The notes below the pieces were generated by a model that was not told the origin of the DNA, searched no databases, and saw only the letters and a list, made by a program, of their open reading frames with translations. Of a stretch of 64,000 nt of DNA, positions 33,190-38,487 are shown piece by piece; within the stretch, counting starts at the first letter, position 1, and each line of letters starts with the position of its first letter. The position numbers and the translations under genes were made by a program. Source of the DNA: a virus (lineage: Duplodnaviria > Caudoviricetes); IMG/VR virus record IMGVR_UViG_3300033463_000032, positions 64,411-128,410 of that record. One strand, written 5' to 3'.

Positions 33190-33281
33190 GTAAGCAGAAA
33201 AGTTCTAAGGGTTTTATCTGGGAATATGCTAAAACAGATAATTAATATTTTATATTTATTTAAAGGAGGTGATGATAGCAG

Positions 33282-33368
33282 GTGATTAACTTTGGTGATA
33301 TTACAAAAATCAATGGAATGGAAGTTCCAATGGTAGATATTGTTACTGGTGGAAGTCCCTGCCAATAG
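33282..33368 (+). CDS. N-terminal segment of C5 DNA methyltransferase (motifs III-IV including catalytic PCQ), ends at TAG
   Basis: AAAGGAGGTG RBS; translates (M)INFGDITKINGMEVPMVDIVTGGSPCQ*. Confidence 0.85.
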   Translation: MINFGDITKINGMEVPMVDIVTGGSPCQ

Positions 33369-33373
33369 CGCAT

Positions 33374-35467
33374 GATCTTAGTGTTGCTGGAAAAAGAAAA
33401 GGATTAGATGGTGAAAGATCAGGTTTGTTTCTTGAACAAATAAGAGTTATTAAGGAGATGCGTGATTATGACAAAAGAGTTAATGGGAGAACAGGTGAGT
33501 TTATTCGACCAAGATATATGGTGTGGGAGAACGTCATTGGATGTTTCAGTTCCAATAACGGAGAAGATTTCAGGTGTGTCTTGCAAGAAACAATCAACAT
33601 CATTGACTCAACCACCAATGTTCCTGGATTGCCGAAAGGAGCGCAATGGTCTAAATCTGGGGTTGTTCTGGGAGATGGATGGTCTATCGCTTGGAGAGTA
33701 CATGACGCACAGTTTTGGGGAGTCCCCCAAAGACGTAAAAGAATCTCGCTTATCGCAGATTTTGGAGGACAATCCGCACCTGAAATACTCTTTGAGCGCA
33801 AAAGCGAGTATAGGGATCTTGAACAGAGCCAAGAAAAGGGGCAAGACACTTCCACCACAATTGGAGATAGCATTGCAGAAACAAGCGAATCTGATGTAAA
33901 GTCTTATGGTTGTGATTTAAAATCTGGTAGAATTTCCGGTAATATTTCACCTACATTAACAACCAGATCAGGAAATTCTGCTACTACTGGTGGTCAAGTA
34001 TTAACTGTTAAAGAAGGTTGTCTTAATTCTTGGGAAGTACAAAGTAAACATATACAACCTTCCAATGGTATTGCTGAAAGTTTGTATTCTGGTGAAACTA
34101 GATATGGTGGTGGAGAATCATATGTTTTAGATGATACTAAAGTTTATGGTATATCTGCTTATGATAGTAATGCTATGAAATCAGATAATCCTAATAGTGG
34201 AATTTATGAAGCTGATACTGCAAGAACTTTAGATTTAAATGGTGGTAATCCGGCATGTAATCAAGGTGGTATGGCAGTAGTGTATACAAACTATAAGGCT
34301 GATGGAGCTACTGGAAATGATATTGCTTTTGCTACTGTAGGAGATCATGAGAACAGACCTACTGATATGACGAACTTAGTTGTAAAACAATGTTCTAAAG
34401 ATGCTGATAGTAAACTCACATTTAGAAAGACAGGACACCCTCAAAATTCAGAAGAAGGGCAAGGTTGGGAAGAATGTAATATTAATGATACATTGAATGT
34501 TACTGATAATTCAGAAACTAGAACACCTACATTAGTTGTAGATCAAGGTGCTGGAAAGTCACAATGTAATGTATCAGAAGAAGTAACACCTACTCTTACT
34601 ACTACTCACGGTGGTGAACCTGTTATATCTTGTGAAGTTTTTCATTGTAGTACAGAAGAAGAAGTAGCAGCACCATTAAAGGCCAGAGATTTTAAAGATC
34701 CTCAAATTGTTAAAACACAAGATGTTTATGGAATAGATCAACAAGGCGGTAAAGGTCAAGGAAACTATACCATTAATGTAGCACCTACAATGGCATCTGA
34801 AAGTCATGGAACACCTCATGCAGTATGCTATGATAAAGAACAACAGAAAGAACATATTTATAGCTTAGAAGGTAATGGATCAAGAGATAGTCATAAAGGT
34901 GATGGATATTCTGAATCTGAGGTTATGTATACTTTAAATACAGTAGAACAACATGCGGTATGTTGTTCTGGTTCAGAAACATATCAAAAAACTTCTGGGT
35001 GTCTTAATGCTAGTGGTTATGATAAGTTAGGTACTCAAGAAGCTACTAATGATATGTATGTTGCTAATTCTTCTATTGTTCGTAGACTTACACCATTGGA
35101 ATGTACTAGACTTCAAGGATTCTATGATCATTGGTGTGATATTGGAGATTGGTATGATACTAAAGGAAAACTTCATAAGGATTCAGATTCAGTAAAGTAT
35201 AAAGCATTAGGTAATTCCATTGCTTTGCCTTTCTGGAAATGGATGGCTAAGAGAATGGTTAGTCAATATCCTAGTGATTATAAACCTACTATGGCTAGTC
35301 TGTTTGATGGTATTGGTGGCTTTCCTTTGTCTTATTATGAAGCTGGTTGTAAACCTGTTTGGAATAGTGAAATTGAAGAATTTCCTATGGCAGTAACAAG
35401 AAAACATTTTGGTGATGAAACTACCGGAGAAGTAGGAGATCTGGAAAAGTTTTATGAAAACAAATAA
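33374..35467 (+). CDS. Main body of a circularly permuted, multi-TRD C5 cytosine DNA methyltransferase
   Basis: Frame resumes DLSVAGKRKGLDGERSGLF; WENV (VI), PQRRKR (VIII), about 10 target-recognition (TRD)-like repeats, RRLTPLECTRLQGF (IX), YKALGNS (X), then SLFDGIGG (I) and SEIE (II) at the C-terminus. Confidence 0.9.
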   Translation, partial: DLSVAGKRKGLDGERSGLFLEQIRVIKEMRDYDKRVNGRTGEFIRPRYMVWENVIGCFSSNNGEDFRCVLQETINIIDSTTNVPGLPKGAQWSKSGVVLGDGWSIAWRVHDAQFWGVPQRRKRISLIADFGGQSAPEILFERKSEYRDLEQSQEKGQDTSTTIGDSIAETSESDVKSYGCDLKSGRISGNISPTLTTRSGNSATTGGQVLTVKEGCLNSWEVQSKHIQPSNGIAESLYSGETRYGGGESYVLDDTKVYGISAYDSNAMKSDNPNSGIYEADTARTLDLNGGNPACNQGGMAVVYTNYKADGATGNDIAFATVGDHENRPTDMTNLVVKQCSKDADSKLTFRKTGHPQNSEEGQGWEECNINDTLNVTDNSETRTPTLVVDQGAGKSQCNVSEEVTPTLTTTHGGEPVISCEVFHCSTEEEVAAPLKARDFKDPQIVKTQDVYGIDQQGGKGQGNYTINVAPTMASESHGTPHAVCYDKEQQKEHIYSLEGNGSRDSHKGDGYSESEVMYTLNTVEQHAVCCSGSETYQKTSGCLNASGYDKLGTQEATNDMYVANSSIVRRLTPLECTRLQGFYDHWCDIGDWYDTKGKLHKDSDSVKYKALGNSIALPFWKWMAKRMVSQYPSDYKPTMASLFDGIGGFPLSYYEAGCKPVWNSEIEEFPMAVTRKHFGDETTGEVGDLEKFYENK
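33468..33899 (+). CDS. Alternative-frame MTase beta-like subunit nested in the MTase gene
   Basis: AAGGAG RBS at 33452-33457; SRLSQILE..PHLKYSLSAKA..GILNRAKKRGK.LP..L..AL resembles the M.EcoHK31I beta polypeptide. Confidence 0.75.
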   Translation: MTKELMGEQVSLFDQDIWCGRTSLDVSVPITEKISGVSCKKQSTSLTQPPMFLDCRKERNGLNLGLFWEMDGLSLGEYMTHSFGESPKDVKESRLSQILEDNPHLKYSLSAKASIGILNRAKKRGKTLPPQLEIALQKQANLM

Positions 35468-35633
35468 ATACGAAGATGTTTCTTTTGATGTTTATGGTAT
35501 AGATGCCAAGGGTTGTGGGGAATGTAGATTATCTTATGAAGTTCATCCTACACTAACTATTGGTGGTGGGATGCCAGGTCAAGGATATCCATGTATTTTA
35601 ATTGTTAGTAGGAAAGAAGAAGAACATGAGTAA
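35454..35633 (+). CDS. 59-aa free-standing TRD-like peptide, not in ORF track
   Basis: MKTNKYEDVSFDVYGIDAKGCGECRLSYEVHPTLTIGGGMPGQGYPCILIVSRKEEEHE; matches the repeats inside the MTase. Confidence 0.7.
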   Translation: MKTNKYEDVSFDVYGIDAKGCGECRLSYEVHPTLTIGGGMPGQGYPCILIVSRKEEEHE

Positions 35634-36642
35634 GTTTTTGAAGAATATTTTTATAATAGATGGTTCTTTTATGTTACATAGAGCATTACATCTTTCTGAT
35701 GTATTTGCTCTTACTAACTCTAAAGGTGAACATACTGGTGGTATTTTTCAATTTCTTAGAATGTTAAATAGTGAAGTAAGAAAATGTGGTGAGTATTTTC
35801 CTATAGTTGTTTTTGACCAGGGATTAAACCAAAGAAGAGTTAATTTAGATCCTGATTATAAAAAAGCAACTGAAAGAGTACAACAAGAACAGATGGTTCT
35901 TACACCAGATGAAGTAGAAAATGATTATGTAACACAATATAGAAAACAAAGAGACAGACTTTCTGTTATTCTTCCATTCTTTGGTATTCCGGTTATCAAG
36001 ATGGCAGGTTGGGAAGGTGATGATCTTATGTATGTTTTATCAAAGATATCAGAAAGATCTGTAGTATTAACTGATGATAGGGATATGTTGCAATTACTTT
36101 CTGCTACTTGTGATGTAAAAAGACCAAAAGCAAGTGAGTATGTTACTTTAGAATCATTCTTAAAAACAGAGGGTTATCAAAATACGCACGATTTTGTGTC
36201 TTGTAAGGCTTTGCTAGGTGATAGTAGTGATAACATTCCCGGATGTTGTGTAGGCGTAGGAGAGGGCAATATAAAGGGATTATGGCGTTTGTATAAGTTT
36301 TGTAAGGAAAATGGTGTTGTATATCCTAAAACTGAAAAGGAACTTAGAAGTCTTTGTAAAGGAATAGGTGTATCTTACAGAAAAGCCTATTTAAATTTAG
36401 ATTTAGCCAGATATAATATAAATCTACAGTTGATGGATCTGGATTTGGTTAAGATTAAACCAAGTGAACTGGATTCTATTATTGCTACAATAAATAACAG
36501 TACCAGTGCTATTAGTTATTTTAATGCAATAAAACAACTTTCAGAACTAGAAATATCAGATTTTGCAATAGATGAATTAATGAGAACTGTTAAGTTAAAA
36601 GAACAGTATAAGAAAGTAGAACCGTCTGAGTATGAATATTAA
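35626..36642 (+). CDS. 5'-3' exonuclease / flap endonuclease (T4 RNase H / T5 D15-like)
   Basis: IIDGS..LHRA, VFD, YK, EGDD, TDDRD.LQL, LLGDSSDNIPG..GVG. Confidence 0.93.
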   Translation: MSKFLKNIFIIDGSFMLHRALHLSDVFALTNSKGEHTGGIFQFLRMLNSEVRKCGEYFPIVVFDQGLNQRRVNLDPDYKKATERVQQEQMVLTPDEVENDYVTQYRKQRDRLSVILPFFGIPVIKMAGWEGDDLMYVLSKISERSVVLTDDRDMLQLLSATCDVKRPKASEYVTLESFLKTEGYQNTHDFVSCKALLGDSSDNIPGCCVGVGEGNIKGLWRLYKFCKENGVVYPKTEKELRSLCKGIGVSYRKAYLNLDLARYNINLQLMDLDLVKIKPSELDSIIATINNSTSAISYFNAIKQLSELEISDFAIDELMRTVKLKEQYKKVEPSEYEY

Positions 36643-37110: not shown

Positions 37111-37134
37111 GCAATTAGTTAGTTGGAGGTTGAC

Positions 37135-38487
37135 ATGAAAGGTTCAAGTAGTGAATTACAAGATGTATGTATGTCTGCCTTAGAAAAATATCCAAGTGTT
37201 TTAGCAAAATGTTCTACAGAGATTAAGGAAGATTTTTTCGATAATGATCATTATAAATTAATATATAAATGCTTAAGAGAACATTATGAAAAGTACTTGG
37301 CCATACCTTCTTTTAGAGAACTGGCATTATTACTTAGAGAAAGATATTCAGTAGAGTACGGCAAGTTTGATGAAATTCTGGAAACCTTAGACAAAGTACA
37401 TAATATGACTTTAACATCAGAAGAATTTGCTATCAATAAATCTGCTGAGTTTATAAGGAGATGTAAGTCAGAAAAAGCCTTAAATGTTATTGTTAAAAAT
37501 GTTAATAGTAATGGTGAGATAAATCTTGATAATATGGTTGATTCTCTTAATGATGCTTTATCATTTAATTTCACTTTATCAGAACCTTTTAATCTTGCTG
37601 ATGTGAATACTATTAAGAAGATAAAGCAAGAAGAATTAGGACCGGAAGATTCACCTAGAATAATCAAACTGTTTATTAATGATCTTAATTATATCTTTGC
37701 TTACAAAGGCTTAACTCCCGGAACTCTAAATTGTGTTGCTGCTTGCCCAGGATGTGGTAAGAGTATGTTCCTTGTTAATCAAGGATTAGCTTCGATACAA
37801 CAAGGATATAAAGTATTACATGTGGTATTAGGAGATCTTTCTAAGTTAGATATTATATGCAGATACTTAGCTTGTTTGACCGGAGTTAAATTTGAACTTC
37901 TGGTAGGTTTATCTGCTGAGGATCTTGCTACATTTATTAAAAAACATAATATGAGTGGTTTCTTATCTAATCTTGATGTTGTAGTACATGCTGAAAAGGA
38001 AATGTCTACTAATCAGGTGATAGATGAAGTAAGGACTATACAAAGAGCAAATAATCTTCACTATGATGAGATTATCATAGATTATGATGAAAACTTATCT
38101 GATAACAATCTTGATGATATGTATAAGTCTGGTGGAGATATTTATAATAAGTTGGCAGGATTTGCCAAGAATAACAGATCAGTAGTGTGGATAGCTTCAC
38201 AGATTTCCAGAGAGTTCTGGAAGTATGAGATACCACCACTTGAATCCTTGGCTCAATCTTCTAATAAACAGAAGGTACTTGATCTGATGCTTACTATCGG
38301 TAAACCATCTAAATCAAGTTCTGTACTTACTTTGTATGTAGCTAAAAACAGAAGGGGTGAAGAATGTAAGATTTATAGATTAAAGTTTGAAGGTCAATGT
38401 TGTAGGTTATCTCACATATCAGAAGAAGAGTATGAAACAACTAAGAAGTTAGATAAGATGAATGGTGGTGTAGCTCCGGTTGAATAA
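37135..38487 (+). CDS. DnaB-like replicative helicase
   Basis: Walker A ACPGCGKS, IIIDY, WIASQ, AKNRRG; GGAGG RBS. Confidence 0.9.
   Translation: MKGSSSELQDVCMSALEKYPSVLAKCSTEIKEDFFDNDHYKLIYKCLREHYEKYLAIPSFRELALLLRERYSVEYGKFDEILETLDKVHNMTLTSEEFAINKSAEFIRRCKSEKALNVIVKNVNSNGEINLDNMVDSLNDALSFNFTLSEPFNLADVNTIKKIKQEELGPEDSPRIIKLFINDLNYIFAYKGLTPGTLNCVAACPGCGKSMFLVNQGLASIQQGYKVLHVVLGDLSKLDIICRYLACLTGVKFELLVGLSAEDLATFIKKHNMSGFLSNLDVVVHAEKEMSTNQVIDEVRTIQRANNLHYDEIIIDYDENLSDNNLDDMYKSGGDIYNKLAGFAKNNRSVVWIASQISREFWKYEIPPLESLAQSSNKQKVLDLMLTIGKPSKSSSVLTLYVAKNRRGEECKIYRLKFEGQCCRLSHISEEEYETTKKLDKMNGGVAPVE

Follow-up and report, generated by a model that had tools for sequence, protein, structure and literature searches.

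Locus organization and circularly permuted motif order

We analyzed a 64,000-nt stretch of Caudoviricetes phage DNA (the window; positions 64,411 to 128,410 of IMG/VR record IMGVR_UViG_3300033463_000032), which is the latter half of a record of 128,410 bp that carries direct terminal repeats and is rated complete. The window has a G+C content of ~32%, and the subject of this work is a C5-cytosine methylase locus located on its plus strand in a replication-type module. The locus encodes a circularly permuted C5 methyltransferase whose motif order is a trait of its family, and the coding sequence is interrupted at the catalytic motif by an 8-nt gap containing a stop codon. Its parts are listed below, with positions counted from the first letter of the window.

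33282..33365, plus strand: first coding segment, from the GTG start to the Gln codon CAA; reads VINFGDITKINGMEVPMVDIVTGGSPCQ and carries motif III/IV
33360-62, plus strand: TGC codon of the catalytic Cys, in the first coding segment
33366..33373, plus strand: 8-nt coding gap, made of TAG (33366-68), CG and CAT (33371-73)
33374..35467, plus strand: main coding segment, from DLSVAG to the HFGDETTGEVGD tail, with the stop TAA at 35465-67
33468..33899, plus strand: ALT, a 143-codon gene in the +1 frame over motifs VI-VIII (open frame from 33462)
33896..35068, plus strand: variable (target recognition domain, TRD) region of ~390 residues
35454..35633, plus strand: 59-codon mini open reading frame (mini-ORF), YGIDAKG...HPTLTIGGG.PGQGYPCIL, one orphan TRD-type block

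Taking all results together, we regard it as slightly more probable than otherwise that the locus makes one permuted C5-cytosine methylase chain of the P1-Dmt-like 'PCQDLS' clade, probably joined across the gap by a ribosomal hop over the stop, along with an overprinted partner, ALT, and an orphan block, and that self-methylation would serve as anti-restriction cover.

An earlier note, made from the letters of the window, had proposed the motif order III-IV / V-VIII / variable region / IX-X / I-II, and matches to the Pfam profile PF00145 and regular-expression motif searches agreed on this order. With a cut-off of 22 bits, the main ORF scored 71.7 bits and the first piece 22.1 bits. When the genome was searched, PF00145 matched in five pieces, with profile positions 44-72 in a 29-codon frame (33279-33368), and positions 73-129, 134-197, 207-322 and then 3-54 all in a 722-codon frame. 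The S-adenosylmethionine (SAM) motifs I-II are thus C-terminal, and the break lies between motifs II and III, with profile positions 44-72 at the N-terminus and 3-54 at the C-terminus; relatives keep both of these chain ends. The motif searches located PCQ at 33351-33365, ENV (VI) at ~33527, QRRKR (VIII) at 33728, RRLTPLEC (IX) at 35081, GNSIA (X) at 35210, LFDGIGG (I) at 35300 and SEIEE (II) at ~35366. C5-methylase motifs I, IV, VI, VIII, IX and X are therefore all present, PCQ being split off by the gap, and residues 16-63 of M.HhaI (motifs I-III) align to residues 625-672 of the main ORF. Among the 119 closest homologues, 95 begin with M.H.GDITK...GGSPCQDLS, and motif I follows motif IX in 67 of these. 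The same order was found in phage FP_Toutatis and in most IMG/VR relatives.

Both ends of the chain, the HFGDETTGEVGD tail and the N-terminal NFGDITKING, align to the same stretch of the family. The end of the tail, ...HFGDETTGEVGDLEKF (35435-35467), and the N-terminus VINFGDITKING (33282-33310) correspond to the same linker between motifs II and III of canonical enzymes. Overlapping chain ends are the remnant expected from permutation by duplication and trimming, and the overlap looks like a vestige of that process. AlphaFold predicted the core (residues 1-126 and 549-680) confidently, with a predicted local distance difference test (pLDDT) score of 73-94. Its best colinear structural match was the permuted plant enzyme DRM2 (Z 8.1, 168 residues, root-mean-square deviation 3.4), other matches being beta-class amino-methylases (Z ~7) and M.HhaI (Z 6.0); these moderate Z values indicate topology, not function. 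DRM2 and the beta-class enzymes have the catalytic half first and the SAM half last, as in the predicted core, where the C-terminal motifs I-II would fold onto the N-terminal half.

A break between motifs II and III was built into M.MpeI and M.SssI by Slaska-Kiss et al. (2018), and it gave the most active of the ten permutation types examined (PMC5944983). These engineered class B permutants share with the gene of the window the N-terminus between II and III and the C-terminal position of I-II, but they are laboratory constructs specific for CG, whereas the gene of the window belongs to a natural family with thousands of relatives. According to the REBASE survey in the same paper, natural permutants have the break only in the variable region. 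M.BssHII, M.Alw26I and M.Esp3I (type H) are also natural permuted C5 methylases, but with the break in the variable region and IX-X before I-VIII, in contrast to the order III/IV-VIII, TRD, IX-X, I-II described here. The family consists of natural C5 methylases with the best-working permutation of the engineers, one which that survey had not seen in nature.

A stop-containing gap at the catalytic motif

The in-frame TAG and the 5 nt after it (33366-33373) sit exactly between PCQ and DLSVAG. The first frame, VINFGDITKINGMEVPMVDIVTGGSPCQ, ends in the TAG, and the homologous continuation, DLSVAGKRKGLDGERSGLF, resumes 8 nt past CAA in another frame. The first frame has a start codon and an upstream AGGAGG, both of which are kept in two gapped relatives (L140 and L143). 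The main frame, which shows no defect over 2.1 kb apart from the gap, has no ATG, GTG or TTG before TTG 33425, a position beyond the conserved DLSVAGKRKGLDGERSGLF stretch, and no ribosome-binding site (RBS) of its own near DLS. Because of this lack of a start codon or RBS near DLS, the first piece is more likely to be joined to the rest by bypass than to be a separate subunit. In uninterrupted relatives, PCQDLS was exact in 98 of 98 cases, with no residue between PCQ and DLS.

A pattern search found 10 further methylase genes in which 3, 4 or 5 nt separate CAA-TAG from GAY. These and the gene of the window are given below with the nucleotides that follow TAG.

Permuted family: window, CGCAT; L188, CTCTA; L140, GCAT; L143, GCGA; L203, GCGG
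Unrelated canonical 'YSFPCQ' family: L144, CAT; L137, TGCAT; L147, TAA; L182, CAA; L195, CAG; L198, CCGA

L138, L204 and most of the metagenome pattern matches were set aside as chance matches that are not methylases. The gaps in the 11 genes measure 6, 7 or 8 nt, so the reading frame is not preserved. The codon directly before GAY was CAA, CAG, CAT (four genes), CGA (two genes), CTA, TAA or CGG, and in 10 of 11 genes (chance expectation ~16%; the 11 cases are not all independent) it lies at most one base from CAA. The gap of the window differs from that of L137 at a single position (TAGCGCAT vs TAGTGCAT). Among the five gapped permuted genes, the proportion of synonymous differences (pS) was 0.64-0.82, which is saturated, and that of nonsynonymous differences (pN) was 0.12-0.19 on both flanks of the gap; judged from these values, both flanks are under purifying selection. 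In the canonical-order 'YSFPCQ' family, the in-frame 6-nt gaps read CAA-TAG-CAA, -CAG, -CAT and -TAA, and the CAA-TAG-CAA of L182 is a perfectly matched arrangement for a stop-hop.

The combination of CAA-TAG with a CAA-like codon before Asp is probably the signature of a ribosomal stop-hop, and a product spanning the gap is predicted. Translation would start at GTG 33282 and make motif III/IV as far as ...GGSPCQ. At CAA-TAG, with the stop in the A site, the peptidyl-tRNA(Gln) would leave CAA 33363-65, slide 8 nt and re-pair with CAU 33371-73, and decoding would resume at GAU 33374-76. The hop would restore the canonical PCQDLSVAG, with a junction reading ...GGSPCQDLSVAGK, and translation would then run through motifs VI and VIII, the ~390-residue TRD mosaic, and IX and X to the SAM-binding motifs I-II. 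As judged from the sequences, one mechanism, re-pairing at a CAA-like codon with resumption at Asp, is most likely, since it fits all three gap lengths. The arrangement resembles the T4 gene 60 bypass and synthetic stop-hops in that UAG directly follows the take-off codon, a matching or near-matching landing codon precedes the resume codon, and the gap can be in any frame. The gene 60 gap is 50 nt long, whereas gaps of the kind found here have 6-8 nt and no nascent-peptide or stem-loop signal was identified for them. In the recoding review of Atkins et al. (2016), stop-hops are known from synthetic constructs and no natural case is known (PMC5009743), so the gaps described here would, if the proposal is true, be the first natural short stop-hops. 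We put forward tentatively, as a proposal that may well prove wrong, that an active methylase depends on the 8-nt hop, that the gap belongs to a natural family of 4- to 8-nt stop inserts, and that ALT is an unrecognized subunit of the clade.

Several results weigh against this proposal. Very large collections yielded about 11 distinct gaps after PCQ, which makes them rare; the landing codon CAU of the window matches CAA at 2 of 3 positions; and no RNA structure that could stimulate a hop was detected near the gap (z -0.4 to -1.2), the four folds giving nonsignificant z-scores of -1.2 to +0.3. A further point comes from a related 4-nt insert described below, which re-pairing fits poorly, since the landing would usually be on AGA (40 of the 69 contexts listed).

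This insert has the form PC-TAGN-QDLS (pattern P-C-TAG-N-Q-D-L-S-x-A-G), for which there were at least 118 exact matches in IMG/VR viral contigs (L019-L136). A TAGN between the catalytic Cys and Gln codons was also found at L010 ~2915 and L011 ~2940. The 69 distinct contexts among the matches listed comprised TAGA (40), TAGC (26) and TAGT (3), with no TAGG, and the Cys codon was always TGT. At the cassette, GGTGGTTCACCTTGTTAG is conserved at synonymous sites and the neighbouring codons vary, while the flanks have a pN/pS of ~0.3 at saturated pS, which indicates purifying selection on both sides. Two independent GenBank fecal-virome records are 99.4% identical over the cassette, and a search for it in ordinary PCQxFS-type methylases gave 0 matches. 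With its invariant wobble-read UGU and weak stop context, the cassette looks more like a +1 shift site, and its sequence would fit a +1 shift or a 4-nt hop.

One alternative, which we consider unlikely, is that the 8-nt insertion killed this methylase copy, with ALT or nothing functional left at the locus and the long frame intact because the lesion is recent. A stop and a frameshift at the catalytic motif, the rarity of such gaps, the imperfect landing codon and the missing RNA signal would all suit a pseudogene. Moreover, broken copies of this methylase are common, the frame being lost at poly-G runs in many relatives. Random lesions, however, would not give TAG after CAA and a CAA-like codon before GAY in 11 genes with three gap lengths, and the flanks of the gapped genes, whose synonymous divergence is saturated, show purifying selection. 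The 2.1-kb main frame is otherwise intact, and the locus has no poly-G run, that is, no run of 5 or more G.

A second alternative, which we find quite improbable, is a pair of consecutive stop-stimulated +1 frameshifts (CAA U|AGC GCA U|GAU) giving PCQ-Ser-Ala-DLS, in which case the 7-nt gaps would be crossed by one +1 shift and the 6-nt gaps by read-through. It gains from the lone difference between the gaps of the window and L137, which is synonymous in the +1 frame (AGC/AGT, Ser), from the weak-context bases that follow both stops, and from the classic +1 features of the 4-nt cassette, where a wobble-read UGU always precedes UAG and A or C comes next in 66 of the 69 contexts listed. It would nevertheless require a separate mechanism for each gap length, would place unrelated residues (R, S, RH, RR or SA) next to the catalytic Cys, where uninterrupted relatives have none, and would leave the conserved CAA-like codon before GAY unexplained.

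The earlier note had described a four-part system built from several polypeptides, a view that does not fit the break between parts 1 and 2, which consists of an in-frame TAG plus 5 nt with no start codon for part 2. We consider it highly improbable that a 28-aa PCQ peptide, the main chain, ALT and a mini-TRD are made separately and assemble non-covalently. Split C5 methylases do work, both natural and engineered (PMC5944983, PMC2836561), and relatives divide the enzyme into 'III-VIII' and 'ALT-TRD-IX-X-I-II' ORFs. Nonetheless, starting at TTG 33425, the first start codon of the main frame, would remove DLSVAGKRKGLDGERSG, a 28-residue peptide ending at the catalytic motif is unprecedented, and the RBS of the mini-ORF is poor. 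Re-initiation at the GTG inside GGTGGT was also considered and rejected: this codon is missing in several cassette genes, and in genes of the L038 type the +1 frame is closed just upstream, which makes re-initiation impossible there.

Reading TAG as sense can be dismissed since it would not restore the frame, and an alternative genetic code was rejected because code 11 ORFs of at least 100 codons cover 82.5% of the genome and the 10 phage tRNA genes, clustered outside the window at G000:C1:11128-14629, include no suppressor. The cluster contains tRNA-Gln(UUG), Ser(GCU), Asp(GUC) and Arg(UCU). Its tRNA-Gln(UUG) reads CAA, the proposed take-off codon, and probably represents ordinary codon-usage support.

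We also considered whether the inserts are linked to homing endonucleases, as are T4 mobA and gene 60. This was rejected, as HNH, GIY-YIG or NUMOD domains occurred in ~4 of 39 non-redundant genes upstream of methylase genes with the 4-nt cassette, and no homing endonuclease gene adjoins the methylase locus of the window. Mobile elements do cluster on this methylase gene family. Inteins (Hint) lie inside the homologues P0208, P0244 and P0272, and HNH_3 was found in P0124 and P0221. An HNH homing endonuclease gene (L001 897-1511) abuts the methylase of phage Javan191, and a NUMOD3 gene (L140 1-506) is directly upstream of the gapped L140 gene.

The nested +1-frame gene ALT

An alternative-frame ORF nested in the methylase gene had been reported in the earlier note, and our stop counts show that this frame (33462/33468-33899) is under selection. 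ALT has AAGGAG 10 nt upstream of its ATG, and a tblastn search with it matched 116 phage records, always inside C5-methylase genes. Such matches are partly a by-product of DNA conservation, so the frames were tested directly, using 22 homologous segments with less than 88% nucleotide identity. Across the length of ALT, the +1 frame of these relatives contained 1 stop in 3142 codons and the +2 frame 184, while the +1 frame ahead of the ALT start contained 38 in 645. In the 29 codons after motif VIII, the main-frame protein varies strongly (entropy 2.27 bits), and the third position of main-frame codons was more conserved than the first (entropy 0.99 vs 1.37). This reversal, unlike ordinary coding sequence, matches what selection on the +1 frame predicts. 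ALT homologues share the Met start and the pattern SFGESP...ESRLSQILED.PHPKY.LSAKACQGILNRA.RRGK.LP..L..AL. On these sequence patterns, we conclude that ALT is a genuine, selected gene.

In a profile search, ALT matched 4633 representative clusters, including 644 with E<=1e-30. It usually occupies residues 1-140 of proteins with lengths of 140-620 residues, and many of the longer ones are ALT fused in frame to TRD-IX-X-I-II (the PF00145 half). Other fusions join motif IV-VI to the C-terminal half of ALT (Toutatis gp14, L015/L016). The frame changes between these ORF architectures sit at poly-G runs, namely L002 1686 (G9), L008 4314 (G8), L014 3210 (G8) and L016 3207 (G6). An open, conserved +1 frame of this kind is also present in Streptococcus phage Javan191 and dmt of phage P1. 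In P1 dmt, a 163-codon open +1 frame covers motifs VI-VIII (L139 1516-2007; AF234172.1 66710-67201) and carries the conserved ALT block LLSQVLE...RYFLSSKACAGILRR / LLSQVLE...RYFLSSKACAGILRRGEKRRKSLPPLLQMAL, and the P1 record does not annotate it. The C5 domain of P1 Dmt belongs to the same PCQ/ENV/QRRRR clade, but, unlike the gene of the window, it keeps the normal motif order, is fused to a Dam-like domain and lacks a gap at PCQ. A literature search of a limited collection turned up no paper on a frameshift or an overlapping gene in the PCQDLS methylase family. ALT thus appears to be an old overlapping gene that exists in thousands of copies, unannotated, in a clade that includes phage P1.

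Since many relatives carry the ALT domain at the start of a separate TRD-IX-X-I-II chain, ALT probably serves the enzyme as a partner or docking module and not as the supplier of a catalytic motif. The 143-aa product would be made from the +1 frame and, while attached to the TRD-SAM half in the two-ORF relatives, would be free here. A second chain nested in another frame of a C5-methylase gene recalls M.EcoHK31I, whose beta chain is encoded wholly in the other frame inside the alpha gene and supplies motif IX (PMC2836561). Unlike that beta chain, ALT has no PF00145 match, and motif IX of the window lies in the main chain (35081), so ALT does not supply it. Less favourable to a role in the enzyme are the searches and the predicted fold. 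ALT had no match in Pfam or the Protein Data Bank (PDB) (none to PF00145 at E<=1), the only matches in PHROGs and the ESM Atlas were fragments labelled 'hypothetical' or 'DNA methyltransferase', and the fold was predicted confidently only for the last 45 residues, as two C-terminal helices, too uncertain for fold searches. If the proposal is true, ALT, conserved from gut phages to P1, would be an unrecognized subunit of the whole methylase clade.

The variable region, the mini-ORF and neighbouring genes

The variable region was cut by us into ten blocks, whose starts on the plus strand are as follows.

m1, 33896; m2, 34019; m3, 34139; m4, 34295; m5, 34421; m6, 34544; m7, 34637; m8, 34721; m9, 34856; m10, 34994

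All ten TL-like tetrapeptides listed in the earlier note were present in the region, but its description of ten tandem modules as repeats was not borne out, as a BLASTP comparison of the region with itself gave no off-diagonal match and hence no internal repeats. Only m1, m6, m8 and the mini-ORF were detectably alike (E 0.001-0.018), with the common pattern YG.D..G......PTL....G. The idea of a modular array itself held up when block sets and orders were compared among relatives. Single blocks recur at 55-78% identity in enzymes that are otherwise 30-45% identical, often out of order (L017, L010). Block sets differ among the 119 homologues, which have total lengths of 501-1165 residues, and in 54 of them the best matches are non-colinear with the copy of the window; block counts are rough, because the coverage of high-scoring segment pairs overstates block presence. 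The variable region is thus, from these comparisons, a mosaic of short, separately conserved blocks that are shuffled into differing sets and orders.

This pattern is as expected of stacked TRDs, and multi-specificity is plausible. At least 6 elements of the PTL(T) type (xPTLxxxxG) or the xxLxARDYK type are found in the array, while canonical enzymes carry one, and in the alignment with M.HhaI the last block (m10) falls on the TL region. Tandem arrays of short TRDs, each built around a TL-type core, are found in the phage orphan C5 methylases M.SPRI, M.Phi3TI, M.Rho11sI and M.H2I. These multispecific Bacillus-phage enzymes have the normal motif order and 3-5 TRDs, compared to the ~10 blocks of the gene in the window. 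The earlier note had compared the modules with such enzymes, but tblastn detected no sequence relationship between the array and the SPR, phi3T, rho11s or H2 TRD arrays.

Multi-specificity is weakened by the predicted fold of the array (pLDDT ~30, no folded modules) and by the tblastn matches of the array, which were confined to gut-Firmicute phage records, with no Bacillus phage. Because the blocks could not be folded, many specificities may only be suggested. A serious, though somewhat unlikely, alternative is that the enzyme has a single specificity, the variable region being one large DNA-binding domain or mostly linker, with the last block as the sole TRD. Such an enzyme would account for the alignment of the last block alone to the M.HhaI TL region or PF00145, for blocks that are not mutual repeats, and for an AlphaFold model without folded modules. 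It would not lead one to expect at least six copies of a signature that is present once in canonical enzymes, nor blocks that are individually conserved at 70-78% identity and reshuffled in otherwise diverged enzymes, nor an array length that varies, with relatives reaching ~1100 residues. If the array does hold many specificities, such long reshuffled arrays could give gut phages a natural toolkit for methylating cytosine with different specificities.

Under our preferred reading, the enzyme presumably methylates the DNA of the phage itself to shield it from host restriction, and more than one sequence is probably targeted. This role is suggested by context, an orphan methylase in a phage replication module; no restriction enzyme gene adjoins the locus.

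The separate TRD mini-gene proposed in the earlier note corresponds to the 59-codon ORF with HPTLT at 35454-35633. The ORF itself is present, but its RBS is weak, and its product shares 52% identity (E ~1e-12) with a block inside the main-frame arrays of L140 and L143, with further similarity to array blocks of L017, L052 and L054. The mini-ORF, which may be expressed, is on this similarity better described as an array block that has been displaced. A precedent for a TRD outside the main array is M.phiBssHII, which has 'TRDs at separated locations'. The mini-ORF follows the main-ORF stop in another frame and overlaps the end of the main ORF, and a distant GGAG is its only RBS. Its last 32 nt (35602-35633) overlap the start of a 5'-3' exonuclease gene, so three reading frames are used within 200 nt.

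The ORFs upstream of the methylase locus had no Pfam match, and two genes were assigned downstream of it.

35602-36642: 5'-3' exonuclease gene (TTG start 35602)
37123-38487: DnaB-like helicase gene

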